From Hydrurus foetidus (taxonomy: Eukaryota), in assembly GCA_900617105.1 (NCBI GenBank), contig UYFQ01000001.1, forward strand, positions 4,278,001 to 4,342,000: 64,000 bases of DNA, written 5' to 3'. This document shows positions 22,784 to 58,259 of this stretch, in pieces. How positions within the stretch are numbered: the first letter of the stretch is position 1; each line of letters opens with the position of its first letter. The translations under genes and the position numbers were made by a program. The notes below the pieces were generated by a model that saw only the letters and a program-made list of their open reading frames with translations, searched no databases and had not been told where the DNA came from.

Positions 22784-23305
22784 TCAGTTACTTTGTGGGC
22801 CGCACTTTTCCTGGGGACTGGGTATGGCATTGCATCTGTCAAACGCTTCTGCCTTCACGCCGCCGCGTGTGGTTCTGAACGGGGCGAAGCAGGCACCGCT
22901 TTCATCGAAAAGGCGCCACCAGGTTTTGCAGTCGGTGCTCTCGGTTACTGCTTCGGCGGGACGTTTGGCCGCGGGTAGCGGCGATGCAACTGGTGGCGCG
23001 GCAGCGTTTGATGCGGCTGGCTGCGGTGCGCTGGCTTTGCTATCGCGATTTTTGGCTCCTTCAATCACTGCGCGCCCCTTGCCATTCACATCTGGGGTGA
23101 GTGAGTGGGTGCAAGTGACGATGCCCTTGTACCTGTCCGGGACGACGTCTGCAAACTGTACCTGCCCGTTTTCGTCGATCCAGCGACAAACTGAAGTGGC
23201 TTCAGCGGGCACTGAAATGACAAAACACGCCACAATTGCCAACCCACTTAAACAGAAGGAGTGTTGTCGATCACAGGCAGCGTTACCAATATTCAGAGTG
23301 TTCAC
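22784..23305 (-). CDS. DUF4124-like exported protein
   Basis: Signal-like segment followed by VCRWIDENGQVQFADVVP. Confidence 0.65.
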   Translation of the reverse strand: MNTLNIGNAACDRQHSFCLSGLAIVACFVISVPAEATSVCRWIDENGQVQFADVVPDRYKGIVTCTHSLTPDVNGKGRAVIEGAKNRDSKASAPQPAASNAAAPPVASPLPAAKRPAEAVTESTDCKTWWRLFDESGACFAPFRTTRGGVKAEAFDRCNAIPSPQEKCGPQSN

Positions 23306-26300: not shown

Positions 26301-29300
26301 GCGTGGCGGCCATGCGAGCGGCGCGCTCCAGGTGCATGGGCTGCAGGTATTTATCAATTCGTCCCGCCAGCTCTGTTGCATCAGCCGCAGCGGTAGTGGC
26401 AAAGCTGAGCCGGGCCACGCCACCAGCAGGTATGCGCACCTTGACGCGCAAACATGCCACGGGGTCAAGTCCATTGACCGGCGTTTGATCGGCGTGTTGT
26501 GCGTGGCCTTTCGCCAAAGCGGGTTGCGCGCGGCTGCGGTTACGCCCTAAAAATTCGCGGCGGTCTGTGATGCAGTCTAGCGAGACGATGTCGGCATCGG
26601 CTTCGGCCAAAAAATGCGCGGCAGACAGCGCGGCGTCGCCCTGCAGCCGCGGGCGGCGGCTCAACAGCAAGGCCCGCCACGGCGCATGCCAGGTGGTGTT
26701 GATGAACAGGTTTGAAAACGCGGGGTGGGCCTCGTCGGCTTTGGCATCGGCCAAGACCACTTCAAAGCTTGATATCACGTCGTATGTGACTGCGACGTCT
26801 TGCCGGTTGGTAATCACCACGGTGCGCAGCTCGGTGTCGTCTTCGGGGCTGACAAGTACGGTCGTGACCGCGTGCATCTGCTTTGACGTCGCATCAAACT
26901 GCACGCGGTCGGCCATAAAGCAGCAGCTGTAGCGCCACTGGGGGTGCGGAGCCGGGTGCGCCGTAACTGAATAGCCGGGTGAGTCATTGCCCGCGCTGAG
27001 ATAGATAAAACTGCCGTACTCGTCGCGCAGCAAATCGTCCCGCCAGCGGCTGATGTTGTGCCAAGCGTGCTGGTACCGCCAGCGGCTAACGCCCGCGCCG
27101 TTGGGCCGCAGCGCCACGCTGTAGTGCCCGTTAGACAGCAAGTGAGTAGGCTGCCACTTGTATGTTTGCGGGTTGATAGTGCGCGACTGAAAAGCGCTGT
27201 TGGGCGTGCCTTCGTCCAAGGCTGGTGCACTGCGCGGATTGGCACTGCTGATAATTTGCCGGGGGCAGCGCTCTTGCAGCAAGGTGTCGTAGGCCGCTAC
27301 CAGCGGCGTTTGCGAAAACCAGCGCTGCGGCGCTTGGCCGCACAACACATTGCACAGCGCCACCAGCGCCATGCCCTGATGGTGGGCCATGTAGTTTTTA
27401 ACGACGCTGAAGTTTTCGGTGTGCGGCTGGTGTGCGGCGGTAAAGTCAACCGCGTCCATGAAACCGAATTCACCCCGCGTGTTCAGCAGCTCCAAGCGCC
27501 GCAGGTTGGCAATAGCTGGTTTGGGCAGCAGCATGGTTGCCATCAGGCTGGCGTACGGTGCCACCACTTTGTCGCTGGCCGGTGTGCGCCGAAGCGCCAG
27601 GCGCGGCACGCCAAAAGGTGAATACTGGTAGGCCAGTGAATGGTCCTGTGCGAAGTAGGCTGATTCAGACACACCCCAAGGCAGGGCTTGTGCAGTACCA
27701 AACAATTGCTGCTCCATTACACCGGCCAGGCTGGACGAATGCAGCAGCCCCTGCTCGGGTTCTTGCATCACCAGGGACGGCATCAAGTATTCAAACATGG
27801 AGCCTGACCATGACTTGAGCCCGGGCGTGACCCCGCTTGATAAAAATGCGCGGCCAAGCGCCATCCAGTGGCGGCGGGGCACGTCGCCTTTGGCAATGGC
27901 AACAAAGCTGGCCAGCCGCGACTCAGACGCCAGCAGATCGTAGTAGCTGGCATCCAGCACATGGTCTTGCACGCGCAAGCCGATATGAAACAAGTGCCGC
28001 TTGGAGTTGTAAAGACTGCTGAAGTTCATGGCCATGCACAGCTGCATACACTGCGCGGCAGTGCTGCCCAACTGCTGCTTTTCAATGGCCGTAGTGTCTG
28101 CTTTGGCCGCCAGACTGATGCACGCACCGCTGGTTGCCAGCAAATGCCCAGCGAGGTTGCCACTGTCCACCGTGGACACATAAGCGGGCTGCAACACGTC
28201 GAGCGTTTCGGTTTGGTACCAGTTGAACAAATGCCCATCGTGCTTGGGCAGCTTGTCTATCGTGGCCAAGGTGGCCTGCAGGCGGCTGATTGTCTGTTCC
28301 GTGTTGATCCAACCAAATTCGCGTGCGCAGGTGACAGTGAGCAAGTACAGCCCGATGTTGGTGGGCGAGGTACGGTGCGCTAACGTCGGCTCGGTATCAA
28401 TTTGCAGATTGTCGGGCGGCAAATGGTTATCAAGCGGGGTAATGCAATGTTCAAAAAAGCGCCAGGTGTCACGCGCAATGCCCATCAGGTAAGCGCGCTC
28501 GCCATCGTCAAGCCGCTGGGCTTGGGGTTGGCGTGCGGGGAGGCTGGCCCACCAAGCAAAAGCTGGGCTTAGCGCCCACAGCGCTAACAGCGCAGCGCCG
28601 GCTGCTGGGTGCGGACTGTACAGCAGCGCCAGTGCGCCCAATGCAATGGATGCCGTTGCCGTCAGAGCATGTTTGCGCACAAAAGCACCCAGCGTGTATT
28701 TGGCGGCGGCTTGGGCTTGGGCGGCAGTGGTCCACTGCAGCAAATGCTTGCGGCTGATGCCCATGCGCCACAGGGCCCTTGCAATGGCGTCAAGCTGCAA
28801 CCCCGCTTTATGAAATAGCTGCGTAAATTGCCACGCCGCCGCACCAAACGAGCGCCACAGCGCAGCCATGCCGACATGAAAGAAATGCCGCAGCACAATG
28901 CCGCGCCGGGTGGGCACCAAAGACGCCAACGCGCCTAGCAGTGGCCCCGCCAAAAAGGCGGCCAGCACCATGGCAACCGCTCGACCCAAAGGCATGGCGC
29001 CAGTGAAAATCACCCACACCAGCAGAGCCGACGAGGCCGGTACCACCAGCGAGCGGCGCAGGTTGTCCAGCATCTTCCACAAGCCCAAGCTGTCTATGCC
29101 GTAGTGTGTGCTGCGCACCATCAGCGGCAGTAATTGCCAGTCGCCTCGCGCCCAACGGTGGTGGCGCGAATCGTCAACGCCTGCATGGTGCGGATGGTCT
29201 TCGACCAGCACCACGTCGCTGACATACGCGCAGCGGCTGATGCTGCCTTCTAGCAAGTCATGACTGAGAACTGATTCGTCGGCCAAGCGACCATCCAGCA

Positions 29301-31578
29301 CGGCGTGCAGCGCCTTGACATTCAGCAGGCCCTTACCCGTAAACGAGCCCACGCCAAACAAGTCTTGGTACAAGTCCGATGTGCCGTTGCTGTAGGGGTC
29401 AATGCCGCACTGGCCCGCAAACAGCGCGTGAAAAGGCGAGCGCTCCTCAAGCTGGGGAAGCGGCGTGACTACCCGCGGCTGCAAGATGCCGTAGCCACCT
29501 GTCACGCGCCGGGTGCCAGCGTCTATATGCGGTGTGTTCAGCGGATGCGCGGCAATTGACACCAACTCGCGCAGGGCAGTAGGCGGCAGGCCGGTGTCGC
29601 TGTCGAGGGTCACGATGTATTGAATGCCGCTGGCAAGGCGCATGCCGTCGGCAAAGTAAAACGGAATCTGCTTGTCTTGCTCGTTTTGCTCATGCTTGAC
29701 CGGCGCTTCGCCTGTAGGCAATGCATTTTTTTCGCTCTTGGCAATTAGCCGCACCAGCGCCTCAAGCTTGCCGCGTTTGCGTTCCCAGCCTATCCACTTG
29801 CCTTCAGTGCCGCACCATTGGCGACCCCTGTGAATAACCAAAAAGCGCGGCTCGTCGGCCTTGCCCGAGGGGTAGGCGGCGTTGAGCAACCCCACCTGTG
29901 CAATTGCTTCATCAAGCAGTGCGCTGTCAGTCGGCATGCTGACTTGGTCGGCATCGGCCCAGTCAGTCAACAGGGCGAACTGCGCGTTTTGCTCCAAGCT
30001 GGCCAGCCAATGCAAACGCAGTCGCGCGGCCAGTTCGCGTATGGACGCGTTTGAGTTCAGCATGCACGGCATGACGACCAGCACGCGGTGCTGCGCCGGT
30101 ATGCCATTTGCAAAGTCCATTCGGGGCATGGGCGTGACGCGGGTTGACTCTGCAATCAAACGGTGAATCACCGCCGCCACAGCTTCAGACGCGGGCAAAG
30201 CCATCAAGGCGAGGGCTACCCACTGCGCCCAGTGCCAATCAGCCAGGTTGTGTAGCGGCCTGCTGGTTAGCGCAAGCAGTGCGATAGTGCCCAGCAGAAG
30301 CGTCAGCAAATAAAGACGCAACCGCCACGCAAGGCTCAGGCCTAGGTTGGTACTTTTGCTTTTTGCGAGGTTGTTGGGCGTTAAGCCCTGCAGCAGTGCA
30401 CCAAGCCCCGGCCCAATGAGGTGGTACGCCGCTGTGTTTTCGCCGTTTTCAACTGCCCGAGTTGTGCTGCGCTGTGCGCTGCTGACTACTGCCTTGGCCA
30501 CAGCGAGTTCGGTTTGCCTGGTGTCGCGGGCAACTTTTTCCATTGCCTGCGTAATTTGCTGGCGCGTGCCTTCGCTGTCGAGGGCAAAGCTTGGCAATTG
30601 CCGCAGCACCTGCAGGGCGCTGCTAACCGGCTCAATCAACTCGCTCCAGTCGACCTGGCCTATCAAGCGCAAGCTGTTAATGATGTTGCTGATGGTGAGG
30701 TTGGTCGACACTTGCGCCGACTGGCTGCCAGCAATCAGCGCCAGGCCATTGACGCAATGCAGATTGATCCAGTACACCAGCATCGCGTTGGCATCGCTGG
30801 GCTGGTCGGGTATGCGCTGCCACAGCTGGGTTAGAAACCCGCGCTCCAGGCCTCTGGCGCGCATGCCTGCCAGCAGCTCGTTTAAATCGTTTTCAGACAG
30901 CGATCCTTGCGCGTCCCACGCAGCATGAGCTGTTTCGCGCGCTGCCTTGCCTTCTGCAATGTGGTCGGCTACTCGGCGCAAATTTTCAAGCAGTACCACC
31001 CGCAGCGTGGTCGGCAGCGCCCACAGCTCGCCCAAGCTAAGCTGGTTAACCTCTTGGTAGGCGTGTAAGAAGGCGGTAAAAAGGGCGGGGTCCAGCACAC
31101 TGTCGGTGTGTGCCACATAGCCCCAGGCGATGCCGTAAACGCGCGGTAAACCTTCTAGTGGTTTATCGGTAAGCTTGGGCAGGTCAGCGTAATAACGGCG
31201 CGGCACACCTTCGTGAATTTGCTGAAGCTGCGCTTCGACCAGATGAAAATTATCGAGCAACCATTCAGCCGCTGGCGTAACGTACTGGCCGCTTTGCGAA
31301 ATGGTGGCAATGTAGTCGTAGGCCTGCCGCAGCGCTGCAATGTTGTCTTTTACCCGAGGGAAAAACGAAAGGCTTTCGCCCCAGCTCTTGCTGGTACGCA
31401 CGGCTTGAGCCTGCGCCAGGCTGCGGCCGTGCTCTTCAAAGCGTTGCGTGCCGAACAGCTCGGCACGAATCAGCGGCTCTGGCCCGCTTGAATTGCTTGT
31501 AAGTATTTCTCTGGCGTAGGCGCTTAAGGTTTCCAGCCGGTCAAGAACAGCGGTTTTCACATTTTCAAACGATGCCAA
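23302..31578 (-). CDS. Cyclic beta-1,2-glucan synthase (Cgs/NdvB/ChvB-like; GT84 plus C-terminal GH94)
   Basis: 2758 aa; GWERKRGKL, TLDSDT, SHDLLEG, RWARGDWQL, SWSGSMFEYLMP, GFYQAGGAFGFRDQLQD, GDWNDG, GVRENGGQY. Confidence 0.92.
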   Translation of the reverse strand: MASFENVKTAVLDRLETLSAYAREILTSNSSGPEPLIRAELFGTQRFEEHGRSLAQAQAVRTSKSWGESLSFFPRVKDNIAALRQAYDYIATISQSGQYVTPAAEWLLDNFHLVEAQLQQIHEGVPRRYYADLPKLTDKPLEGLPRVYGIAWGYVAHTDSVLDPALFTAFLHAYQEVNQLSLGELWALPTTLRVVLLENLRRVADHIAEGKAARETAHAAWDAQGSLSENDLNELLAGMRARGLERGFLTQLWQRIPDQPSDANAMLVYWINLHCVNGLALIAGSQSAQVSTNLTISNIINSLRLIGQVDWSELIEPVSSALQVLRQLPSFALDSEGTRQQITQAMEKVARDTRQTELAVAKAVVSSAQRSTTRAVENGENTAAYHLIGPGLGALLQGLTPNNLAKSKSTNLGLSLAWRLRLYLLTLLLGTIALLALTSRPLHNLADWHWAQWVALALMALPASEAVAAVIHRLIAESTRVTPMPRMDFANGIPAQHRVLVVMPCMLNSNASIRELAARLRLHWLASLEQNAQFALLTDWADADQVSMPTDSALLDEAIAQVGLLNAAYPSGKADEPRFLVIHRGRQWCGTEGKWIGWERKRGKLEALVRLIAKSEKNALPTGEAPVKHEQNEQDKQIPFYFADGMRLASGIQYIVTLDSDTGLPPTALRELVSIAAHPLNTPHIDAGTRRVTGGYGILQPRVVTPLPQLEERSPFHALFAGQCGIDPYSNGTSDLYQDLFGVGSFTGKGLLNVKALHAVLDGRLADESVLSHDLLEGSISRCAYVSDVVLVEDHPHHAGVDDSRHHRWARGDWQLLPLMVRSTHYGIDSLGLWKMLDNLRRSLVVPASSALLVWVIFTGAMPLGRAVAMVLAAFLAGPLLGALASLVPTRRGIVLRHFFHVGMAALWRSFGAAAWQFTQLFHKAGLQLDAIARALWRMGISRKHLLQWTTAAQAQAAAKYTLGAFVRKHALTATASIALGALALLYSPHPAAGAALLALWALSPAFAWWASLPARQPQAQRLDDGERAYLMGIARDTWRFFEHCITPLDNHLPPDNLQIDTEPTLAHRTSPTNIGLYLLTVTCAREFGWINTEQTISRLQATLATIDKLPKHDGHLFNWYQTETLDVLQPAYVSTVDSGNLAGHLLATSGACISLAAKADTTAIEKQQLGSTAAQCMQLCMAMNFSSLYNSKRHLFHIGLRVQDHVLDASYYDLLASESRLASFVAIAKGDVPRRHWMALGRAFLSSGVTPGLKSWSGSMFEYLMPSLVMQEPEQGLLHSSSLAGVMEQQLFGTAQALPWGVSESAYFAQDHSLAYQYSPFGVPRLALRRTPASDKVVAPYASLMATMLLPKPAIANLRRLELLNTRGEFGFMDAVDFTAAHQPHTENFSVVKNYMAHHQGMALVALCNVLCGQAPQRWFSQTPLVAAYDTLLQERCPRQIISSANPRSAPALDEGTPNSAFQSRTINPQTYKWQPTHLLSNGHYSVALRPNGAGVSRWRYQHAWHNISRWRDDLLRDEYGSFIYLSAGNDSPGYSVTAHPAPHPQWRYSCCFMADRVQFDATSKQMHAVTTVLVSPEDDTELRTVVITNRQDVAVTYDVISSFEVVLADAKADEAHPAFSNLFINTTWHAPWRALLLSRRPRLQGDAALSAAHFLAEADADIVSLDCITDRREFLGRNRSRAQPALAKGHAQHADQTPVNGLDPVACLRVKVRIPAGGVARLSFATTAAADATELAGRIDKYLQPMHLERAARMAATLAQVRLRDLGIDADENAALQDLATALMCSSPRPSSGTALIDQRQLWRLSISGDKPILLVRIHSAEGMGLIQSLLRAQPWWSFGALATDVVVLNSEDNSYLSPLQHEIVAQRDRLMQKVQHSFPASNAAGFYLLREHEVSPQEKAALTSMARVVFIADGRPIESQIAALKTVWSPSAKPAAVEQPARPALPTPHFIKTPVGSVDSTNGEFQFNISPTQRPPRPWVNMIANATFGFQVSETGSGYTWATNSRLHQVTSWSNDPVEDPGHEHYLLQDIETSQFLRLTPGNHRSPTEQAAGANQTAATYRVRHGQGYSVFESAHDQLETATTFFVASDAPVKLVHVQLRNNSNKPRALRALAMAEWQMGANSTERRTVLTWSPPHLSAVMAQQRQTRAGFGGSTAFLALAGLPGVVQWTCDRSEFFDVSGQLMWPTTLSQRSGGGFDPCGALASSFTLAPGEVFGFTFMIGHADDATQAELLATAWLKQDVAQAYKKVRSFWGDLLGHIQVTTPDPLFDALVNRWLLYQTLTSRLWSKAGFYQAGGAFGFRDQLQDSMAFAVVAPARLRDQIVLNASRQFAEGDVQHWWHAPGGEGVRTHFSDDLLWLPFACAHYVDVTGDTALLDEQVAFIEGAAIPPGAEDAYYAPDISGTQASVYEHCARAIDRSLATGTHGLPLMGTGDWNDGMSRVGHEGKGESVWLAWFLCSVSQNFAPLAKARGDLERADKWLNARQGWVEALHTHGWDGKWFRRAFFDNGAPLGSSSNDECKIDLIAQAWSVLSGASTDTFVQSAMQSLTQQLIDDDAGLIHLLTPPFQKSANNPGYIQAYPPGVRENGGQYNHATVWALMAQAQTGDAQGAWESFKAISPLHRSQHPTRGPLYELEPYVTAGDIYGAAPYTGRGGWSWYTGSAAWLYRAALESILGLSMRRGELSLTPCVPADWPSFEVALRLDGRVVTVRWQRGQETELKPDRTVKVGEVLRLAELPAQAFVLVVAESTKETS

Positions 31579-31798: not shown

Positions 31799-31984
31799 GG
31801 TTTGCTCCAAATGCATCAAGGGCGGCAATTTCACGGCGGGCTGTTTTGTGTACAGATGCCGCACGTTTCGGCCTTGAAATGATCGTAAGCAAATACCCTT
31901 GGCTTGCCCATCAGACGCTGCTGCATTTGGTGTAGGACTGGGGCTTGGGGTGCCCAAAACAGGTGTCTGCGCGTAGCCTAAATC

Positions 31985-32027
31985 GCTATATTTTCAGTAG
32001 CTAGTCGCGCGCGAATTGATTGCTTTC
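31985..32027 (-). repeat. 43-bp bipartite motif (degenerate first arm)
   Basis: GAAAGC AATCAATTC GCGCGC GACT AGCT ACTGAAAATA TAGC. Confidence 0.65.
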
Positions 32028-32151
32028 ACATCACTTTTGGTGCCCAAAACACAGGCTGGATGCAGCTTTGAAACATATCTTCACACCGGTGTCGCGCCAA
32101 TTTGGGCTGGAAGGCCGTTTTCAGGTGTTTTTTAGCGGCGTTTATTGGCTA

Positions 32152-32194
32152 TAGACCAATAAATACGGGCGCGAGCAGCTATTTATTAAATAGC
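32152..32194 (+). repeat. 43-bp bipartite motif (intergenic)
   Basis: TAGACC AATAAATAC GGGCGC GAGC AGCT ATTTATTAAA TAGC. Confidence 0.9.
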
Positions 32195-32241
32195 AAATTA
32201 AGTACTGGCTATTCTGAGTACAGCCCAACAGCTTTCAAACA

Positions 32242-32550: not shown

Positions 32551-32760
32551 GACTGACTCCTTGAGTAAGTGTGTTCCATCGAAGACTAAATAAGCGCTTG
32601 ATGATGCGCCAGCGCTTTTCTCCAGTGCAGCACCTCAATACTTTGGCGAAGGCCGTGCAGATAAAAAGGATCGGTGGACATGATGGGCCCCTGGTAGGTT
32701 GGAGTCTGAAATCGTGCTTGGGGCTTGTAAAACCGCTAATTTGAATGTTTTTAAAGGCTT

Positions 32761-32803
32761 TAGCCCAATAAATACGGGCGCTAGAAGCTATTATTTGAAT
32801 AGC
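32761..32803 (+). repeat. 43-bp bipartite motif (just past the ppc stop)
   Basis: TAGCCC AATAAATAC GGGCGC TAGA AGCT ATTATTTGAA TAGC. Confidence 0.9.
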
Positions 32804-32810
32804 AATTACT

Positions 32811-35732
32811 TCACCCCGTATTGCGCAAACCAGCCGCAATCCCGTTGATCGAAATATGAATGCCGCGCTGTACGCGCTCGTCTGCCTGTCCAGCCCGGTA
32901 GCGGCGCACCAGCTCTACTTGCAAGTGGTGCAGCGGGTCGATGTACGGAAAGCGGTGGCGGATGGAGCGTTGCAGCGACGCGTTGTCTGCCAGCAAGTGC
33001 TTTGCACCCGTGATCAATGCCAAGGCGCCCACTGTGCGGTGCCATTCGGCCTCAATGGCGCTGAAAATCTTTTTGCGCAATTTGACATCCACCACCAGTT
33101 CTGAATAGCGTGACGCCAGCGCCAGGTCGCTCTTTGCCAGCACCATGTCCATGTTGCTGAGCAGCGTTCTGAAAAACGGCCATTCTTTGACCATTTTTTG
33201 CAGCAGTTGTGTTGCTTCTTTTCTTTTGGCAGGTGTGCCGGCCTCTAGCAGCATGCTCTCAACTGCCGAGCCAAAGCCGTACCAGCCGGGCAACGTTAAG
33301 CGGCATTGGCCCCAGCTAAAGCCCCAGGGAATAGCGCGCAGGTCTTCAATTTTTTGGCTTGGCTTGCGCGATGCGGGGCGTGAACCAATGTTAAGTTCAG
33401 CAATTTCGCGGATTGGCGTGGCGCTGAAAAAGTACTCGGTAAAGCCAGGCGTTTCGTATACCAGCGAGCGGTAAGCGGCCATGCTGCTCGTTGAAAGCGT
33501 GTCAGCTGCTTTTAGAAACGCGGCCGTGGCTGATTTGGTTGGCTGCAGCAGCGTGGCTTCGAGCGTGGCGGCCACCAAAGTTTCAAGGTTGCGGCGGCCG
33601 ATTTCGGGGTTGGCGTATTTCGAGCCGATGACTTCGCCTTGTTCGGTCAGGCGGATTTGACCGCGCACGGTGCCGGGCGGCTGCGCCAAAATGGCCTGGT
33701 AACTGGGGCCACCGCCACGGCCGACTGTGCCGCCGCGGCCATGGAACATGCGCAAGGTAATGCCATGCAATGCTGCCAATTCGTCAAACAATTCCACCAG
33801 CGCAATCTCAGCGCGATAAAGCTCCCAGTTGCTGGTAAAAATACCGCCGTCTTTGTTGCTGTCTGAGTAACCCAGCATGATGTCTTGCTCAGCCCCGCTG
33901 CGTTTGACCAGCTGCGCAATGCCGCTCAAGGCATAGAACTCGCGCATGATGGGGGCGGCGTTACGCAGGTCTTCAATGGTTTCAAACAGCGGCACAACGA
34001 TAAGGTCGCACGTCGCGAGGGCCGCCGCGCCGGGCCGCCCCAAGCCAGGCCGCCCCCCCTCGGGGGGCAGCGAGGACACGTCAGTGCCGAGCGTGGGGGT
34101 CAACCAGCCTTTCATCAGGCCAACTTCTTTTTGCAACAGCAGCACTTCAAGTAAGTCGCTCACCGTTTCAGTGTGGCTGATGATGTAGTGGCGAATCGCC
34201 TCTTTGCCAAAGCGCGTGCGCGCTGTGCGTGCCGCTTCAAAAATAGCCAGCTCGCCTTGCGTGTGGGCGGAGTACTTGGCGCCCATGACACGCAGCGGCC
34301 TGGCGTCGTTTAATAAACGCAGCAGAATCTCGCGCTTGGCGGCTTCACTCAAGCCTGCGTAGCTGGGCTCAATGCGTGCGGTGGCCAGCAGCTCGGCCAC
34401 CACGTCTTCGTGTTTGTCAGAACTCTGGCGCAAGTCGACGGTGGCTAAGTGAAAGCCAAATACATCAACCGCGCGAATCAGCGGGTGCAGGCGCTGGGCG
34501 ATTAAGGCTTCGCCGTGATTTGCCTTTAACGATGCAGCGATGGTGCGCAAGTCGGCCAAAAAATCTTCAGACTTGGCGTAGGCGTTTTGCGGGGCTACAG
34601 CGTGGCGTGCCGCGTCGCCGCCGGTCAAGTTTTTTAGCGTAGCGGCCAGGCGCGCATACACGCCAGTCAAGGCGCGTCGATAGGGCTCGTCCTGGCGGTG
34701 TTCATTGGTGTCGGGCGAGCTGGTGGCCAGTAGTTGCATCGCTGGGGTAACGCTGGTCAGCATGGCCGACATCGACAGCTCGCCGCCCAGCAAGTGCGCC
34801 TCTAGCAAGTAGTAGCGCAGGGCAACTTCTGCCTGGCGGCTTAGCGCGTAGTTGAGCGTGTCGGCTGACACATTGGGGTTGCCGTCGCGGTCGCCGCCTA
34901 TCCATTGGCCCATGCGCAGAAAGCTGTGAATTTTTTGGTCGCCGAGTTCGCGTTCAAGGTTGGCATATAGCTTGGGAATTTCGCGCAAAAAAGTCGCTTC
35001 GTAGTAGCTGAGCGCGTTTTCAATCTCGTCAGCTACCGTCAGCTTTGTAAAACGCAGCAAACGGGTTTGCCACAGCTGCATGACGCGTGCGCGAAGCTGC
35101 GCCTCGTTGGCGGCCAGCTCGCGTGGGGTAAGGGCGTCTTTGGCGGCTGCGGCTGGGCTTTCGGCATGCACTGCAAGGGCCAGCGCTTTGATGGCATCAC
35201 GCGCAGTCAGCAGTTGCGCAATATCGCGCTCGGCGTCCAGTATGCTTTTGCGTTGTACTTCTGTCGGGTGTGCGGTGAGTACCGGCGACACAAAGCTATT
35301 AGCCAGCATGGCAGCTACAGTTTTAGGAGCTATTCCCGCCCAGCGCAGGCGGGCCAGGGCTACATCAATGCTGCCTTCCTGGGTGTCGCCAGCCCGCTCA
35401 TGAATAGCGCGGCGGCGAATGTGGTGGCGGTCTTCAGCCAGATTGGCCAGGTGGCTGAAGTAGGTGAAGGCTCTAGTCACGCTCACGGTTTGGTCGCCCG
35501 ATAGGCCTTTGAGCAGTTTTTTCAGCGCCCTGTCTGATGCCACGTCGGCATCGCGCCGGAAAGCTACCGACAGCAAGCGGGTTTGCTCAATCAATTCGTA
35601 GGCGGCGACGCCTTCTTGTTCGCGAATCACATCGCCCAGCAGGCGGCCCAGCAGGCGAATGTCTTCGACCAGCGGGCGCTCATTGGCTTTGGCATTTTTG
35701 GAAACTGAGGCGGTTGCAGGGGGAGTGGTCAT
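32811..35732 (-). CDS. ppc: Phosphoenolpyruvate carboxylase
   Basis: [56 protein letters not shown]. Confidence 0.97.
34027..34099. repeat. GC-rich REP-like palindromic element in-frame within ppc
   Basis: GCGCCGGGCCGCCCCAAGCCAGGCCGCCCCCCCTCGGGGGGCAGCGAGGACACGTCAGTGCCGAGCGTGGGGG, with a CCCCCC-TC-GGGGGG hairpin. Confidence 0.7.
35314..35356 (-). repeat. 43-bp bipartite motif overprinted on the ppc CDS
   Basis: TGGCCC GCCTGCGCT GGGCGG GAAT AGCT CCTAAAACTG TAGC. Confidence 0.65.
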
Positions 35733-36861: not shown

Positions 36862-37760
36862 TGGCCACTACCGGCCGCGACCCCACCGGCCGGGTGATTG
36901 TCACGCGCCCTGCGCATGACGCGGCAATCTGGGTCGGCCAGCTGCAGAGCCACGGCGTCAATGCGCTGGCGCTGCCGCTGATTGAAATTGCAGCTGCATC
37001 AGGTGCTGCCGATGTGCTGGCCTTACAAACCGCCCAGCAAAACTTGGCAAGTTACGCAGCTTGCATGTTCGTTAGCGGCAATGCTGTAGAGTATTTTTTC
37101 AATCATTTAGTGCCTTCGGCCCAATTAAATCAGGCGCAAAAAGCTCCTAAAAATATAGCAACAAATTTGGCCGCGCTACCTGCCAACACGCGCTTTTTAG
37201 CTCCTGGCCCCGGTACAGCGCTGGCGCTGCGCGATGCAGGCGTGCCTGCCGACAGCATTGACTGCCCGCCGCCAGATGCTGGGCAATTCGATTCCGCTGC
37301 GTTGTGGGCCGTGATTGGCCCGCGCAACTGGCGCAGCGCACGGGTGCTGCTGGTGCGCGGCCACACCGACGAATTGCCCAGCACAACACATGCGCTGACT
37401 GAAGCTGTCCCTCCGCGCGATTGGTTGACCCAAAAGTGGCAAGCAGCTGGCGCGCAAGTCGATGTCGTGAATGTTTACGAGCGCCGGGCACCTGAGTTGA
37501 CCGCCGCGCAGCTAAATTTGGCTAAAGTTGCCAGCGGCGATGGTTCAGTGTGGTTGTTCAGCAGCTCTGAAGCGGTGGCCAACCTGGTGCGCAACGGCGC
37601 GCTGGCCAGCACAGATTGGTCGGGCGCCCGCGCCATTGCCACTCACCCGCGAATTGTGCAAACGGTGCAAGCGGCGGGTTGGGGCGCGGTTGCAGCGGCG
37701 CGACCGGCTTTGGCAGACATAGTGCAGGTGTGGCGCTCGATAGAATCAAGCTTGTCATGA
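36858..37760 (+). CDS. hemD: Uroporphyrinogen-III synthase
   Basis: VIVTRP, FVSGNAV, PGPGTA, VYER, LFSSSEA; position after hemC. Confidence 0.9.
37117..37159 (+). repeat. 43-bp bipartite motif within hemD
   Basis: CGGCCC AATTAAATC AGGCGC AAAA AGCT CCTAAAAATA TAGC. Confidence 0.8.
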
Positions 37761-40334: not shown

Positions 40335-43300
40335 TCAGGTCTTTTCAAACGGCAGTTGCATGTCTTTCAAGTCACGTTTGGTCTCTACCAGCACCAGTGG
40401 TGCTTGCGTTTGCGCGACTTGCGGCGGACGCTCACGCGGCACATGCGCGGGTTTGGCTTCAAGTGCCATGGCCGCTTTTACTTCGGCGATTTTGCTAGCG
40501 TCGGAGTTCACCCATTGCAAACCCGAGGTCTGCGCCACCACAGCCAGGTCTTGCAGCGGCAAATCGTAGGCTTGCACCTTAGGCAAACCTGCGGGCGCTG
40601 CGGGCGCGGCTACGCTGACTGGCGCAACTGGAGCTGTAGCAGAAGCAGTGGGCTGAACGGCTTTTTCCGCTATTAATTCAGGAGCTGCTTGCGCCCGAAT
40701 TACTTGGTCTACCGGTTCATTTTGCAACAAACTTTGCTGTGCAGGCAATGAATTGCTGCCCGTTAGCGGGGCGCTATCGCCTGCTTCAGCGTTGCTGTTT
40801 TCACCGGTAGGTGCTGCATCGCCGCGCTCGCGACGTTCACGGCCATAACGGTCGCGGCTGCGGCGTTCACGTGGCTCACGCGGCTGGCGTTGATCGCCGG
40901 CATCTGCTTGATCGCCTTGCGTCTGGTTGTCGGCAGAAGCGTTTGCGTCCGGCCCAGTAGTCAGCTCAGCAGTTGCGGCATCACCGAAGTCCTGACGCTC
41001 ACCTCGCGCCTCACCTTGACGGTCATTGCGGCGACCGCGATCACCTCGCTCGCGGCGCGGGGAGTCCTGACCAGCTTCTGGCGCGGTGCCGCCCATTGCC
41101 GCTGCCATGGCGGCTTTGTTGGCCATCGCGATGTCTTGCTCAGTGGCGTCTACGGGGGGGCGCTGCTCGCCGCTACGCTCGCCGCGTTCACGGCGGGGGC
41201 GCTCTTGACGTCCGCCTACTTTTGGCTCTCTGGGCTCACGCGGTGGACGCGGCTCGCGCTGCTCTTGGCCTTCGCCTCGTAATTCACTTCGCTGTTCACC
41301 GCGCTGTTCGCCAGTGCGTGGGTCAGTACCGCGTTCGCGGCGCTCGCCGCTGCGGCCATCTGCAGGCCGGCCATCATTTCGTGGCTCACTGCGTTGTTCA
41401 TTGCGAGCCTCTGGTCGGCTTTCGCCACGGCCTTCCGGGCGACCTTCTGGACGACCTTCTTGTCGGTCTCCGCGTTCGTTGCGTCCTCGGCCACCTCGGC
41501 GGCCATCACGGCCACCGCGCTCGCCGCTGCGTTCAGTGCGCTCACCGCGGCCGTCACGGCGCGCTTCGCCTCCTCGTTCAGTTGGGGCAGTTACGCTGGC
41601 TGCCGGTGCTGTGGCTGGCGCTTCCGAGCCGCCGAACAGACCTTTGATCCAGCCAAAAAAGCCTTTTTCCGCCGGGGCAGCGGCTGCTGCCACTGGTCGC
41701 TGTGCAGGCCGAGCAGCCGCCTGAGCTTCAGGCTTCAATTCCGCTTTAACGGGCGCAATCGGCGCAGGCGCATCAGGCAACACGCCCTTGATGACAGGCT
41801 CTTGCTTGTTGTGCTTTTCCTGGCTGCGACGCGTCACCGTGGTGGGGTCTTCAATGTCGTCGGCCATCTTGTAGCTGGCTTCGATGTTGTCCAGCCTTGG
41901 GTCGTCGTGCTTGAGGCGCTCAAGCCGGTAATTCGGTGTTTCCAGCGTTTTGTTCGGCACGATCAGCACATTGATGCGCTGCTTCATTTCAATTTTGCTG
42001 ATTTCTGAGCGTTTTTCGTTCAGCAAGAAAGCCGCAACATCAACAGGTACCTGGCAAAGAACAGATGCCGTGCTGTCTTTGAGCGACTCTTCCTGAATGA
42101 TCCGCAAAATTTGCAATGCTGAGCTTTCGGTATCGCGAATGTGGCCCGAGCCACCGCAACGCGGGCAAGGGATGGACGCGCCTTCGCTCAGCGTTGGGCG
42201 CAGGCGCTGGCGGCTCATTTCCATCAGGCCAAACTTGCTGATGGTGCCGAACTGAACCCGTGCACGGTCTTGGCGCAGCGCGTCGCGCAAGCGGTTTTCT
42301 ACATCGCGGCGGTTGCGAGATTCCTCCATGTCGATAAAGTCAATCACCACCAGGCCGCCCAGGTCACGCAGGCGCATTTGGCGGGCTACTTCATCGGCGG
42401 CTTCTAAATTGGTGCGAGTGGCGGTTTCTTCAATGTCGCCGCCTTTGATGGCGCGTGCCGAGTTGACGTCAACCGACACCAAGGCCTCGGTCTGGTCAAT
42501 CACAATCGCGCCGCCCGATGGCAGCTGCACGGTGCGGGCGTAGGCCGATTCGATTTGATGCTCAATCTGAAAGCGGCTGAACAGCGGCGCGTCGTCGCGG
42601 TAACGTTTCACGCGGTGCGCATGCTCGGGCATCACGTGGTCCATGAACTGCTTGGCTTGCTCGTACACGTCGTCGGTGTCAAACAAAATGTCGCCGATGT
42701 CGCTGTTGAAGTAATCGCGAATCGCGCGGATGACGAGGCTGGATTCCTGATAAATCAGGAACGCGCCCTTGCCGCCTTTGCCAGCGCCTTCAATGGCGGT
42801 CCAGAGCTTGATCAGGTAGTTCAAGTCCCACTGCAATTCAGGCGCGCTGCGGCCTATGCCGGCAGTGCGGGCAATGATGCTGGCACCGGCTGGGTATTCC
42901 AGCTGGTCCATGTTTTCTTTGAGTTCTGCCCGGTCTTCGCCTTCAATACGGCGGCTCACACCGCCACCACGTGGGTTGTTGGGCATCAGCACCACATAGC
43001 GGCCTGCCAGAGACACGAATGTCGTTAAAGCCGCGCCCTTGTTGCCGCGCTCTTCTTTTTCGACCTGAACCATCAGTTCTTGGCCCTCGCGAATCACATC
43101 TTGTATGCGTGCCTGGCTGACCGACACGCCGCTGGCAAAGTAGTTGCGTGATATTTCTTTAAACGGCAAAAAGCCGTGGCGGTCTTCACCGTAGTCAACA
43201 AAGCAGGCTTCCAGCGACGGCTCGACGCGCGTGACGACGGCCTTGTAAATGTTGCCCTTGCGCTGCTCGCGCCCTTCAATTTCAATTTCATAGTCGAGCA

Positions 43301-43370: not shown

Positions 43371-43570
43371 GATGATTTCTTCCTGTCGTTCGTTCAAATA
43401 AATGAACTTCTACAGCCCAAAACGGGCCAACGATGCCTAAAAAGACGCCGTGCGAACGGAGGAATTGCCGGAGAGCTTTCGACGCGGCTGAGCCGACTGA
43501 ATCAATCAGTCAGGACAGTGGTCTGGGCGTAGGCGCGTGGATAGGGCGAGGTAGAGTCTTGACAATATTT

Positions 43571-43613
43571 GCTACTGTTTTAGTAGCTGCTCGCGCCCAT
43601 AAAACAAGGGCTA
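43571..43613 (-). repeat. 43-bp bipartite motif in the rne-rluC intergenic region
   Basis: TAGCCC TTGTTTTAT GGGCGC GAGC AGCT ACTAAAACAG TAGC. Confidence 0.9.
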
Positions 43614-43978
43614 CAGGCTGAAAAGCTTCGTAAAAGCCCAAAACCAGCGCTAAAAAGCGCTGTAGGCAAAAAGCAATCAGGTTGTGCAGCGTTGTCATCA
43701 AAAGGCTATCGTTCAAAGACTTTTTCTCAAACCAGATCCGCCGGGAGCTCAGCCTAAGTTCCAGCCAAGCTACCGGTTTGGGTATTCCGTAGTTGTATTC
43801 GCAAAACGCCGATTTTTATGTCGAATCAAACCCGCCGGGTGCCTGGCACGCTGGGCTTGGGGTATGACCGAAATAGGCATCGACCTTCCAGCGCAGTTTG
43901 AGTTGGCCTTTCTAAAGGGCTTTTGAGTCGCGTGGACTAAACTCCATGCAAATCAACAACTTAACAAACATTACGCTA

Positions 43979-46118: not shown

Positions 46119-47222
46119 GTGAGCATGACTGACCCCAAACGCCCCGACCCCATTGAGCCATCTCATGACCCGTACGACGACCCGGCAGGGTTGTCTGAAT
46201 CTATAACCAATGACCCTGTAGACCAGACAATACGGGCGCAAGCAGCTCCTGAAAACATAGCAAAAAACATGAACAAAAACGACCCCACCAGCCAACCCGG
46301 TTGGGAGCGCGCCACGCTTGAAAAGCTCGCTTTCGCTTCCTTGAACGAACAAAAATCCGCCCGCCGATGGAGAACCTTTGTGCGCCTGGCCTGGCTGGTG
46401 TTTTTTGTCGCCGTGATCTGGTTGGCGTTGCACCGCGGCGGCACTGGCGCCGCAAGCGTCAGTTCGCCGCACACAGCGGTAATCGAAATCAAGGGCGAAA
46501 TAGCCGACGGTGCAGACGCCAGCGCTGAATTTATCAACGCCGCGCTGAAAGCTGCTTTTGAAGACGAGGGCGCCAAAGCCGTGGTGTTACTGATCAATTC
46601 GCCCGGCGGCAGCCCGGTGCAGGCCGGCATGATGAACGATGAAATCCGCCGCTTGAAGGTTCTGCACAAAAAACCCGTCTACGCTGTGGTGGGCGAAACC
46701 TGCGCGTCGGCTGCCTACTACATTGCGGTGTCTGCTGACCAGATTTTTGTCGACAAAGCCAGCATTGTTGGCAGCATTGGCGTGCTGATGGACGGCTTTG
46801 GCTTTACCGGGCTGATGGACAAGCTCGGCGTTGAGCGCCGCTTGTTGACTGCCGGTGAAAACAAAGGCTTTTTAGACCCGTTCAGCCAGCAAACTGACAA
46901 GCAGCGCGCCTTTGCACAAGCCATGCTTAACCAGATTCACCAGCAGTTCATCAGCGTGGTCAAAGCCGGCCGCGGCGAGCGCCTTAAAGAAACGCCTGAA
47001 ATGTTCAGCGGCCTGTTCTGGACAGGTCAGCAAGCGATCGAACTGGGTTTAGCCGACAAGCTGGGTACGCTCGAATACGTTGCCCGCGAAGTCGTCAAGC
47101 AAGACGACATCGTTGACTACACCCGCCGTGACAATGTGGCCGAGCGCTTGGCTAAAAAGTTTGGCGCGGCAATGGGCGAGGGCGCGATGAAGGCGGTCAA
47201 GGCTATGCCTGCGATCCGGTGA
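46119..47222 (+). CDS. sppA: S49 family signal peptide peptidase (SppA-like)
   Basis: INSPGGSP, CASAAYY, VGSIGV. Confidence 0.88.
   Translation: MSMTDPKRPDPIEPSHDPYDDPAGLSESITNDPVDQTIRAQAAPENIAKNMNKNDPTSQPGWERATLEKLAFASLNEQKSARRWRTFVRLAWLVFFVAVIWLALHRGGTGAASVSSPHTAVIEIKGEIADGADASAEFINAALKAAFEDEGAKAVVLLINSPGGSPVQAGMMNDEIRRLKVLHKKPVYAVVGETCASAAYYIAVSADQIFVDKASIVGSIGVLMDGFGFTGLMDKLGVERRLLTAGENKGFLDPFSQQTDKQRAFAQAMLNQIHQQFISVVKAGRGERLKETPEMFSGLFWTGQQAIELGLADKLGTLEYVAREVVKQDDIVDYTRRDNVAERLAKKFGAAMGEGAMKAVKAMPAIR
46219..46261 (+). repeat. 43-bp bipartite motif within the sppA N-terminal extension
   Basis: TAGACC AGACAATAC GGGCGC AAGC AGCT CCTGAAAACA TAGC. Confidence 0.9.
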
Positions 47223-47278: not shown

Positions 47279-48043
47279 TTAGCGCCCGATACAAAAAACT
47301 GTAGGCAAAGCCAACGGCGGCGCTGGCTTGCTTTGCTTCCACTTGTCTACTGTCGCGCTTTTGTTCCAAGCGGCGTCTAGCGTCAAGCCGCAGCTAATGG
47401 CCAGCCGGGAATTGCTTTGCAGGGTTTGCAGCAGCGCTTGCAGCAAAGCTGCATTGCGGTATGGCGTTTCAATAAAAATTTGTGTCTGACCGGTTTTTAA
47501 CGCCAAGCTTTCTAGCGTTTTGATGCGCTGGCTGCGCTCGCCTGCATCTTGCGGCAAGTAGCCGACGAAGGCAAAGTTCTGCCCGTTCAAGCCGCTGCTG
47601 GCCAGCGCCAGCATGAGCGACATTGGGCCTGTCAACGCGATCACTTCAATGCCCAAGTCATGCGCCGCCCGCACAACTGACGAGCCTGGGTCGGCGATGG
47701 CGGGCATGCCGGCTTCACTGACCAAGCCCACGTCGTGGCCTTCCAGTGCGGCTTTTAGCATCGGCTTGGCGTCAAAGTTGCCGCTGTGGTCACCCTTTTT
47801 GTGAACCTCACGCGGCAGCTCTTCAATATGTAGCGCTTGCACCGTTTGGGCTAACGGCTGCAGTTCGCCCACGCGCTTGAGGTAAGCGCGCGTGCTTTTT
47901 GCGTTCTCGCAAATCCAGTAGCCCAAACGAGAAGCAACTTCAATCGTTTGCGGCGGCATGACGTCAGTCAATGGCGAAGTTGAGTCGCAACCGAAATCCA
48001 GCGGTGCGGGCACTAAGTAAAGCTTGCCTTTAGTCATGCTCAT
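47279..48043 (-). CDS. SAM-dependent methyltransferase (RsmI/tetrapyrrole methylase-like)
   Basis: LYLVPAPL, SEAGMPAIADPG, FIETPYRN. Confidence 0.85.
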   Translation of the reverse strand: MSMTKGKLYLVPAPLDFGCDSTSPLTDVMPPQTIEVASRLGYWICENAKSTRAYLKRVGELQPLAQTVQALHIEELPREVHKKGDHSGNFDAKPMLKAALEGHDVGLVSEAGMPAIADPGSSVVRAAHDLGIEVIALTGPMSLMLALASSGLNGQNFAFVGYLPQDAGERSQRIKTLESLALKTGQTQIFIETPYRNAALLQALLQTLQSNSRLAISCGLTLDAAWNKSATVDKWKQSKPAPPLALPTVFCIGR

Positions 48044-48697: not shown

Positions 48698-49240
48698 ATG
48701 AGCAAACACCCAGAAGCAACGCGCCTGAATGTACAAGCCTTGGCAGAAGCAGGTAGCGAGCTGAATGAATCTATTTTGCTGCATAAATTAGAGCGGCTCG
48801 CGCCCGAATCTATTGATAAAAATACTGAAAACACGGTTGATTGGAGAGCAAAATTCGAGTTGCGCACGGGTGCTGGCGGCCAGCCTGATGTGTGGCTGCA
48901 CCTTCATGCATCCACTTGCATGCCCCTGACTTGCCAGCGCTGCATGACGCCCGTTTCCATGCCGTTGGAAGTTGAGCAGTGGTACCGATTTGTGGCTACT
49001 GAAGCGCTTGCCATGGCTGAAGACGATGCGTCTGAAGAAGATTTGCTGGTCATGGCCCCGCAATTTGATTTGTTGGCGGTGCTGGAAGATGAGTTGCTGA
49101 TGGCACTGCCGCTGGTGCCGATGCATGACGTTTGCCCGGTTTTACCTGCATTTAGTGCGGGCGAGGTTGAATTGATCGAGCCAGCGCTGGCTAAGCCGAA
49201 TCCATTTGCAGCCCTGGCCCAGCTAAAAAAGCCAAAGTAA
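48698..49240 (+). CDS. yceD: YceD/DUF177 protein
   Basis: CQRC, EDELLMALP, PNPFAAL. Confidence 0.9.
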   Translation: MSKHPEATRLNVQALAEAGSELNESILLHKLERLAPESIDKNTENTVDWRAKFELRTGAGGQPDVWLHLHASTCMPLTCQRCMTPVSMPLEVEQWYRFVATEALAMAEDDASEEDLLVMAPQFDLLAVLEDELLMALPLVPMHDVCPVLPAFSAGEVELIEPALAKPNPFAALAQLKKPK

Positions 49241-51929: not shown

Positions 51930-52898
51930 TTGAAACCCTTTGCATTCGTATTTCCCGGCCAAGGCGCGCAATCTGTCGGTATGCTCGACGCTTGGGGTGA
52001 CCATCCTGTGGTGAAGCAAACGCTAAAAGAAGCGTCCAATGCACTCGGTCAAGACATAGGGTTGCTGATTAAAGAAGGCCCAAAAGAAGAGCTGGCCCTG
52101 ACCACCAACACCCAGCCCGTAATGCTGGTGGCGGGAGTCGCTGCTTTCAGAGTGTGGATGAACGAGACCGGCGCTGCGCCAGCCGTGGTCGCCGGACACT
52201 CCCTAGGTGAATACGCGGCGTTGGTCGCCAGCGGAGCACTGACCTTGACGCAAGCTGCGCCACTGGTGCGGCTGCGTGCCCAAGCCATGCAAGATGCCGT
52301 GCCGGTGGGTGCGGGTGCCATGGCTGCCATTTTGGGCTTGGATGCTACTAAAATTATAGCTGTTTGCGCCCGTATTACGGCGGCTTCAGGCCAAAATGAT
52401 GCTGATTTAGGGGTAAATTCAGGCGTAGTGGAGGCAGTCAATTTCAACGACCCGATGCAAACCGTTATTGCAGGTAGCAAGGCGGCGGTTGATGCGGCTT
52501 GTGAAGAGCTCAAAGCCGCCGGAGCCAAGCGGGCACTGTTGCTTCAGGTGTCTGCGCCGTTTCATTGCAGCCTGATGAAACCAGCAGGCGAAAAACTCAA
52601 GGTTGCACTTAAAGCCGTCAGCTTCGCACCGATGCAATTCCCGCTTATTAACAACATTGACGTCGCTGTGCAGACTCAGCCTGACGCAGTTCGTGATGCG
52701 CTGTACCGCCAGTCTTTTGGGCCCGTTCGCTGGGTAGAAGTAATCAACGCCATCAAGGCCCGTGGTGTGAGCCACATTGTTGAATGCGGTCCCGGCAAGG
52801 TGCTGGCGGGGTTGGTCAAACGCATTGATGCAGAGCTGACCGGCACGCCGCTTTTCGATCTCGCTTCAATGGCCCAGGCAAAAGAGGTGCTGGCATGA
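51930..52898 (+). CDS. fabD: Malonyl-CoA:ACP transacylase
   Basis: FPGQG, GHSLGE, SAPFH; TTG start after GGAG. Confidence 0.95.
   Translation: MKPFAFVFPGQGAQSVGMLDAWGDHPVVKQTLKEASNALGQDIGLLIKEGPKEELALTTNTQPVMLVAGVAAFRVWMNETGAAPAVVAGHSLGEYAALVASGALTLTQAAPLVRLRAQAMQDAVPVGAGAMAAILGLDATKIIAVCARITAASGQNDADLGVNSGVVEAVNFNDPMQTVIAGSKAAVDAACEELKAAGAKRALLLQVSAPFHCSLMKPAGEKLKVALKAVSFAPMQFPLINNIDVAVQTQPDAVRDALYRQSFGPVRWVEVINAIKARGVSHIVECGPGKVLAGLVKRIDAELTGTPLFDLASMAQAKEVLA
52344..52386 (-). repeat. 43-bp bipartite motif within fabD (antisense)
   Basis: AAGCCG CCGTAATAC GGGCGC AAAC AGCT ATAATTTTAG TAGC. Confidence 0.85.
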
Positions 52899-57209: not shown

Positions 57210-58259
57210 ATGATTTCGATACGTTTTAGTCTTCTAGCCCTTATTTTAGCGGCGCAAGCAGCTATTAATACAGTAGCAGCACAAACGCCCTTAACTCCCT
57301 CAACGCCGCCAACCGTTGCAGCCCCAGCCCAAGCTGACGTTAAAGGCATCAACGATTGGTTGCTGCGCATGCACGAATCGTCTAAAAAACGAGCCTACAT
57401 TGGCACTTACGTCGTGTCGTCGGGCGGCGCGATGTCGGCTGCCAAAGTTTGGCATTTGTGTGAGGGTGATCAGCAAATTGAGCGCGTCGAAACCCTCACT
57501 GGCGCACCGCGTTCCATCTTCAGGCACAACGACAAAGTCGTGACCTTCATGCCTGAGCAAAAAATAGTTCGCACTGAAAAGCGCGAGTTGTCTGGCACGT
57601 TTCCTGAACTGGTTCAATCGCCGAACAACAAGATCGCCGATTTTTACCTTTTCAAAACTGAAGGCGTCGAGCGGGTTGCCGGGCTAGATGCAGACGTTGT
57701 GGTGCTGCAGCCCAAAGACAACTTGCGCTTTGGCTACCGGGTGTTGACAGAGCAAAAAAAGGGCCTGGTTGTCAAACTGCAAACGCTTGACATAGATGGC
57801 AAGCTGCTTGAGCAAGCCGCGTTTTCAGAGCTGCAGCTTGATGCGCCCGTCAAAATGGACAAGCTGATGCAAATGATGGGCAGGGTCGGCGGTTACCGTG
57901 AAGAGCGCCCCGTGCTGGTCAAAACCACGGCAAAAGCCGAAGGCTGGATATTAAAAAGCGCGGTCGCCGGATTTGCGCCCATCAGTTGCTATAAAAGACC
58001 CAACGCTGGCGCAGGTAGCAACGGCATCTCCACCAGTACGGATGAACCCATGCAGTGGATTTTTTCAGATGGTTTGGCCTCGGTGTCGCTTTTCGTAGAG
58101 CCGTTTGACCGCCAGCGACACGATAAAGAAACCAGCGCAGTCATGGGTGCCACGCAAAGCATCAGCAAACAGCTGGGTAGCTACTGGCTCACGGTGATGG
58201 GTGAAGTGCCGATGCAGACCCTGCGCTTGTTTGCCAGCGGGCTTGAGAGAAAAAAATGA
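57210..58259 (+). CDS. rseB: Periplasmic regulator RseB/MucB
   Basis: PKDNLRFGY, FSDGLASVSLFVE, MGEVP; start ATG 57210. Confidence 0.9.
   Translation: MISIRFSLLALILAAQAAINTVAAQTPLTPSTPPTVAAPAQADVKGINDWLLRMHESSKKRAYIGTYVVSSGGAMSAAKVWHLCEGDQQIERVETLTGAPRSIFRHNDKVVTFMPEQKIVRTEKRELSGTFPELVQSPNNKIADFYLFKTEGVERVAGLDADVVVLQPKDNLRFGYRVLTEQKKGLVVKLQTLDIDGKLLEQAAFSELQLDAPVKMDKLMQMMGRVGGYREERPVLVKTTAKAEGWILKSAVAGFAPISCYKRPNAGAGSNGISTSTDEPMQWIFSDGLASVSLFVEPFDRQRHDKETSAVMGATQSISKQLGSYWLTVMGEVPMQTLRLFASGLERKK
57235..57277 (+). repeat. 43-bp bipartite motif within the rseB signal-peptide codons
   Basis: TAGCCC TTATTTTAG CGGCGC AAGC AGCT ATTAATACAG TAGC. Confidence 0.88.

Follow-up and report, generated by a model that had tools for sequence, protein, structure and literature searches.

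The uptake sequences of Pasteurellaceae (USS) and Neisseriaceae (DUS) have a core of 9–12 bp, and KOPS, Chi, matS, SlmA sites and HIP1 are selected motifs of 8–13 bp that accumulate by substitution, also within genes, with KOPS and Chi being replichore-polarised. In Rickettsia, RPE are inserted coding repeats that add codons. In the available parts of the cited papers, sequence-specific DNA uptake is established for the two host-associated families named above (PMC2817400, PMC7811141), and USS and DUS are described as subject to molecular drive by biased uptake, biased in reading frame, placed at poorly conserved residues and absent from acquired genes (PMC2817400, PMC2397512), with dialects (PMC3630211) and, for neisserial DUS, a spacing that matches conversion tracts (PMC2397512). 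The available part of PMC3110155 describes BRE of Betaproteobacteria as tandem repeats of ~90 bp and 69% G+C, with at most 29 copies, which add codons.

The stretch of DNA analysed here, hereafter the window, is 64 kb in length and derives from a bacterium resembling Polaromonas; the best named relatives of its phosphoenolpyruvate carboxylase gene (ppc) are from Polaromonas MAGs, and the closest genome compared (G001) has a ppc 99% identical to that of the window. One repeat family, with no Rfam match in the window, recurs at several places within it and is a ~55-bp two-part motif of Polaromonas and other Comamonadaceae, with the consensus TTGCTAT-N7-ATAGCT…CGCCC-N9-GGGC-TAGAGGC. A weight matrix based on 76 copies found across 400 kb of the congener G030 has the consensus nTTGCTAT-nAAWTTn-ATAGCT-GCTTG-CGCCC-N9-GGGC-TAGAGGC-n2-ATTT and holds ~54 bits over ~57 bp, with no short contiguous core of 9–12 bp. 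Unlike DUS and USS, the motif is ~55 bp with two gapped dyads, and ~five times longer than DUS. Copies can be read through as protein, as in BRE and RPE, but unlike these the motif adds no codons, there being no in-frame insertion at ppc. A literature search whose scope was main texts outside subscription journals gave no account of the motif, and it is not described in the available parts of PMC3733652, PMC12306157, PMC6006769 or bioRxiv 10.1101/2025.10.24.684340.

Matches to the strict two-part pattern were found in 21 of 37 congeners, with a maximum of 301 per genome; the 24 genomes from other families gave none, with controls also at 0. A looser pattern for the first palindrome matched in 35 of the 37, mostly hundreds of times, and was absent or nearly so from G014, G028, G011, G033, G002, G003 and G021. 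Across the family 122 of 301 genomes had a match, many with 50–450 compared with 0–3 in controls. G179 had 606 strand matches (2 in its control). The motif occurs at ~1 site per 5 kb in many Comamonadaceae genomes, with hundreds of copies per chromosome. Some complete genomes are nearly devoid of it, with 0 matches in G028 and 7 sites in the 787 kb of G302. Four Polaromonas plasmids totalling 1.24 Mb, counted apart from their host chromosomes, held 2 sites, and 2.9 million viral contigs yielded 2 stretches with the motif. Within the window, positions 1–21700 contain a sugar-use cluster and an IS5 transposase (20529–21623) and zero sites, while 11 of the 12 window sites fall among core genes at 31.9–57.3 kb. 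By these counts the motif is scarce in plasmids, viral contigs and recently acquired DNA, and it resembles DUS and USS in being rare in foreign DNA, in lacking strand preference and in having lineage dialects, the second part varying by lineage as judged by eye. We also considered a phage attachment site, as for neisserial dRS3, and set this aside with only two viral stretches carrying the motif; a likeness to the MOB_Q nick site, TGCG/CCC, was dropped as these bases vary between dialects and plasmids are nearly without the motif. The window also has a 2758-residue open reading frame at 23302–31578 on the minus strand with no NCBIfam match at E 1e-10.

The features at ppc are as follows.

32811..35732, minus strand: ppc, phosphoenolpyruvate carboxylase, the host gene (973 aa, NCBIfam NF000584)
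35311..35367, plus strand: degenerate ~55-bp motif copy, lying antisense to ppc codons ~123–141 (by matrix score; gap-free in 108 orthologues)
35314..35331, plus strand: first palindrome, GCTAC-N7-GGAGCT (15.2 bits), which carries the significance in this genome
35336..35354, plus strand: second part, CCGCCC-N9-GGGC, at background when taken alone here and raised in related carriers

Positions 35314–35356 on the plus strand read GCTAC-N7-GGAGCT-N5-CGCCC-N9-GGGC-CA, antisense to ppc codons 126–140, and VLTAHPTE begins at ppc residue 151, 11 residues beyond the site; coordinates, peptide, codons and distance were all correct in the initial annotation of this DNA. With the G030 matrix the 51-bp core at ppc scored 12.4 bits, a value attained or exceeded at 13 window positions and at none in 60 dinucleotide shuffles. 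A first palindrome as good as that at ppc is expected 0.18 times per window, whereas the second part scored alone is expected 329 times, which is background. When conditioned on the gene's own amino acids and codon usage, the first palindrome gave z=3.6 (p=0.002) and the second part p=0.10. By these calculations the full core and the first palindrome stand above background and the second part by itself does not. The ppc copy is also the weakest full-core match in the window and weaker than the copies of sister lineages. It is a weak but real copy of the two-part motif, and it does not make the strongest case for selection that had been claimed for it, being surpassed by the fabD copy at 52344 and by those in the ppc of relatives.

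Alignment of 108 ppc orthologues, comprising 28 of the 30 loci of one set (L028 and L030, without the N-terminal part, were omitted) and all 80 of a second, showed a gap over residues 124–142 in none of them, and an insertion origin for the ppc site is thereby refuted. A related peptide is found down to Polynucleobacter in lineages without a motif match in the flanks, and the reading frame is therefore native. Fourteen sequences scored at least 11 bits at the first palindrome and are referred to as carriers. These use motif-matching synonymous codons, often very rare ones, and several have a GC3 of 0.84–0.87 yet 6–8 A/T-ending codons at the site. In L005, for example, GC3 is 0.86 and the site has A/T-ending codons at 8 of 8 positions, with gene-wide use of 2/60 for GGA, 5/51 for ATA, 2/121 for GCT and 1/32 for CCT. 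Codon choices track the matrix and not A/T as such: codon 132 is the G/C-ending GCG in 12 of 14 carriers and 4 of 22 Polaromonas non-carriers, while codon 139 is ATA or GTA in all 14 carriers and in none of the 22. Although carriers were chosen on the first palindrome, their second part is also raised (mean z 2.6, compared with -0.4 in 91 non-carriers). Thus the alignment has what the initial annotation had anticipated for an origin in place, namely no indel and synonymous changes that converge on the motif.

Two further arguments of that annotation were less secure in the window itself. The run of A/T-ending codons exists, covers eight codons (133–140) and is the longest in the gene (GC3 0.68), but a run of at least 8 arose in 7.3% of 5000 shuffles (P=0.073) and one of 7 occurs at codons 836–842, so this argument is weak taken alone. 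Likewise, the N9 spacer is G+C-rich (7/9, compared with 1–4/9 in eight strong window copies), although such spacers are common in congeners and the argument is again a weak one. This P value, and the background level of the second part in the window genome, are what a chance match or local A/T mutation bias would lead one to see, but in G+C-rich orthologues z at the site reaches 7.3, codons ending in G or C are used at the positions for which the motif calls for them, and the site score follows motif load and not GC3, which makes this explanation scarcely credible.

Between carriers, synonymous codon identity was 0.52–0.73 gene-wide and mostly 0.67–1.0 at the site. In a fast IQ-TREE protein phylogeny with 48 rows and the site columns removed, carrier state required 6 changes, gains and losses counted together, of which 5 are forced by branches with support of at least 95. 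Carriers include the Rhodoferax sequences L071 and L026, which reach the motif via other amino acids, and graded intermediates at the site are found in L002, L003, L031, L077 and L107. As judged from these alignments, the same 18 ppc codons carry the motif without insertion in several separate lineages, a pattern that would reflect either repeated convergence or retention. The score of the site rose with the density of strict motif matches (rho 0.72, n=27; related genomes are not independent); its correlation with the looser motif count was weak (rho 0.37, p=0.06), and there was none with GC3 (rho -0.21). For this comparison L001 (a duplicate) and L016 (a divergent protein) were dropped, the G001 count was used for the window, and G032 enters as one non-carrier row (L009) and one count, no conclusion depending on it by itself. 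There are counter-examples, as G024, G018 and G006 are motif-rich without the ppc site. The ppc of G006 (L016) is a long-branch, divergent copy, possibly acquired.

The initial annotation had attributed the site to point substitution or conversion and not insertion. Its exclusion of insertion holds, the site being in place and gap-free throughout, but within the pair of processes that it offered, stepwise substitution fits better. Gene conversion or templated repair, which would copy repeat DNA over look-alike coding DNA, accounts for the unchanged length at the site, for dialects that shift together across a genome and for nearest copies being slightly closer than in column shuffles (10.6 compared with 11.7 of 50 positions). 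However, all 61 copies compared differ from one another over 50 bp and have 53 different N7 spacers, the ppc changes lie at synonymous positions around a protein-fixed native spacer, graded intermediates exist, and non-carrier sequence probably shares too little with the consensus for homologous pairing, so we regard conversion as improbable. We consider it very probable that the ppc site was formed in situ, under a force exerted at the level of DNA. The initial annotation had called the motif selected at the DNA level, and while a DNA-level force is well supported, "selected" is here indistinguishable from "driven" by biased DNA exchange.

Other copies in the window were located by matrix scan and by comparison with congeners.

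52341..52397, plus strand: strong, near-consensus copy inside a conserved stretch of fabD, with several amino-acid changes; graded in 7 congeners
37106..37162, minus strand: copy within the hemD linker, which is variable; 21 of 29 congeners, and other genera, have one at the corresponding position
46208..46264, minus strand: copy within the N-terminus of sppA, also variable; 14 of 29 congeners have one at the corresponding position
47817..47837, minus strand: within an rsmI-like gene, first palindrome only, gap-free and shared with 3 of 29 congeners
48775–48830, plus strand: weak copy where the yceD ORF encodes its N-terminal part; 8 of 29 congeners matched at one column of the gene
40666..40722, plus strand: copy in the C-terminal part of rne (matrix scan)
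57224..57280, minus strand: copy at the 5' end of an rseB/mucB-like ORF (matrix scan)
32750..32806, minus strand: strong intergenic copy just beyond the ppc stop codon (matrix scan)
32141..32197, minus strand: strong intergenic copy (matrix scan)
43568..43624, plus strand: strong intergenic copy between rne and rluC (matrix scan)
31982..32038, plus strand: partial intergenic copy (matrix scan)

The fabD copy entails no length change across the motif in the window genome; some congeners have 3 extra residues in fabD just downstream of it. The hemD linker is shorter in most genomes without the copy, and the hemD site is also present in Acidovorax, Rhodoferax, Ramlibacter and others, with the second part in each lineage's dialect. 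Using rough ad hoc gene calls, we placed 159 sites in 800 kb of G030, of which 101 (64%) were intergenic and 58 within called genes. Of the latter, 18 were at an edge and 40 lay deep inside, compared with 2–3 deep coding sites in synonymous shuffles. Of the 40 deep sites, 32 share one codon phase. Motif density in G030 tracks local GC3 (rho 0.57, 40 windows). When G030 coding sites were aligned to the motif-poor G302, 21 of 28 were gap-free over 51 bp and 23 of 28 in the first palindrome, with amino-acid identity of 0.53 at sites and 0.80 gene-wide. On these alignments a minority of coding sites sit in what appear to be lengthened linkers. Motif-poor genomes can also hold peptide relics, as in hemD and sppA of G035 (L233, L198) and a nadD-like gene on contig 7 of G302, which suggests secondary loss of the motif.

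Like REP/BIME, the motif is short, palindromic, chromosome-bound, mostly intergenic and richer in convergent gaps, and a REP- or MITE-like element spreading by insertion, with coding copies being old insertions or polished chance pre-matches, would suit the intergenic majority, the hemD and sppA copies, whose linkers most motif-free genomes have in shorter form, and the gapped coding sites, which are among the strongest. A Y1 (RAYT-like) gene is moreover present in 37 of 38 congeners. However, unlike REP/BIME with RAYT, the motif overwrites codons without insertion at ppc in every orthologue and at the 21 gap-free coding sites, its copies are non-clonal without stem covariation, and the Y1 gene does not track it, adjoining gltB in motif-free genomes too and not being seen with the motif on both sides among the loci listed. 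A true inserted repeat in ppc, described below, adds ~25 residues as the motif does not. We therefore rejected RAYT as the driver and hold spread by insertion to be very improbable; in the available main texts of the REP/BIME–RAYT papers PMC3733652, PMC6006769 and PMC12306157 no Comamonadaceae genus is named. The Polaromonas Y1/RAYT-like gene is single-copy, encodes ~235 residues and directly precedes gltB in almost all Polaromonas genomes (L132–L159, e.g. L136 1378–2175); it looks domesticated and is separate from the motif.

The second repeat in ppc is G+C-rich, ~85 bp, and inserted in frame at 34013–34097 on the minus strand (residues ~546–573). Among aligned congeners it is shared only with G001 and G005, and five genomes, among them the motif-free G028, each contain at least 5–52 look-alikes. 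In size, G+C content, tandem copies and in-frame lengthening it is like BRE, the likeness being drawn from the description in the available part of PMC3110155.

For three non-carrier proteins, of which one is from Acidovorax, we ranked the positions of ppc by the score that synonymous changes could reach, and the site came first of ~5,500–5,750 positions, with 48.7 bits reachable in L023 compared with 27.8 at the next position. The native peptide is thus the most motif-compatible spot in ppc. The same ranking was applied genome-wide to proteins of G302 in 204 orthologue pairs with G030, and a G030 site was present at 4 of 5 positions with a reachable score of at least 35 bits, 3 of 12 at 30–35, 4 of 54 at 25–30, 2 of 137 at 20–25 and 0 of 347 at 15–20, while G302 had 1 site in all over the same positions. 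The first palindrome alone predicted poorly (3 of 23), and the full-length reachable score did better. This test is partly circular, because relic peptides may persist in G302 after a loss of the motif.

No stem covariation was seen among the copies (pair 4/12 being TA 36, CA 16, TG 7 and CG 1), and a stem-loop function was rejected on this ground. There was no orientation bias with respect to transcription (28 same, 26 opposite) and, unlike KOPS and Chi, no replichore polarity, with 74 plus and 70 minus sites in G030 on a contig of uniform GC skew, and 33 plus and 40 minus in G179 with strands mixed throughout. Unlike neisserial DUS, spacing was Poisson-like at ~1 per 5 kb (CV 1.04, Poisson range 0.86–1.15) with short gaps near expectation, so even spacing was rejected. 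No signal of molecule ends emerged from the contigs of four metagenomes. Taken together, the traits of the motif point to a protein that would read double-stranded DNA.

Such a protein could be an abundant chromosome protein, such as a nucleoid organiser, topoisomerase loader or tetrameric regulator-like protein reading two dyads 23–24 bp apart, with ordinary selection keeping each site. T-N11-A is the geometry of LysR-type boxes, and the first dyad has it. The two dyads stand at fixed spacing with A/T tracts, the sites are orientation-free, chromosome-bound and kept at the same places across genera, and the better prediction of occupancy from the full-length score fits as well. However, it would have to maintain hundreds of sites, many of which cost amino-acid changes in core enzymes, divergent promoters are not enriched (sites in 7 of 39 divergent gaps and 17 of 37 convergent gaps), and the motif is nearly lost from complete genomes such as G028 and G302. 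We consider this account rather unlikely.

Core length and spacing aside, the motif behaves like an uptake sequence and may be a candidate for one, since it shares with DUS and USS hundreds of copies and coding sites with frame bias at poorly conserved residues; the likeness is one of sequence, with uptake function and receptor putative. As a mechanism, molecular drive by biased DNA uptake has, in our estimate, close to an even chance. Stepwise point substitution over native ppc codons would build the copy in place, and a putative protein would give DNA with the motif an advantage when it is taken up and recombined, in the manner of uptake sequences, reading ~55 bp of double-stranded DNA, needing both parts and favouring better matches base by base. 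Counted against uptake drive are the share of G030 sites deep in genes (25%, compared with 82% coding DNA), the gaps at 7 of 28 alignable coding sites compared with 5% of background windows, and G114, which has 16 motif matches and no comEC match. The length and gapped form of the motif, its Poisson-like spacing, the motif-rich genomes without the ppc site and the weak correlation with the looser count also weigh against it. Competence-related genes are widespread, with comEC in 295 of 301 genomes, HHH_3 (ComEA-like) in 38 of 38 and dprA in 5 of 5, and PF16732 pilins, considered as candidate ComP-type receptors and hypervariable in sequence, in 289 of 301, motif-rich and motif-poor alike. The presence of these genes does not separate motif-rich from motif-poor genomes, nor, by eye, does any feature of the pilin sequences, and no reader protein was found among the gene candidates compared. 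Among the papers listed by a literature search, none was a study of competence in these genera.

The ppc site contributes a case of convergence or retention replicated over a single native peptide, a link to genome load, and predictability from protein sequence. Somewhat more tentatively than the mechanism itself, we propose that Comamonadaceae may be the third family of bacteria to carry a signal for the uptake of self DNA, in which drive would repeatedly rewrite the same codons of core enzymes at places predictable from the protein, through a receptor with a ~55-bp two-dyad footprint. If the motif is an uptake signal, it would extend sequence-specific uptake to free-living, abundant freshwater and soil Betaproteobacteria and point to a new receptor; if a chromosome protein keeps it, it would mark a new chromosome-binding protein with hundreds of sites. 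The ppc site would be a replicated natural experiment, with separate lineages arriving at the same rare codons and the strength of the force being measurable, and codon usage and some of the protein divergence in these genomes would reflect a DNA signal.
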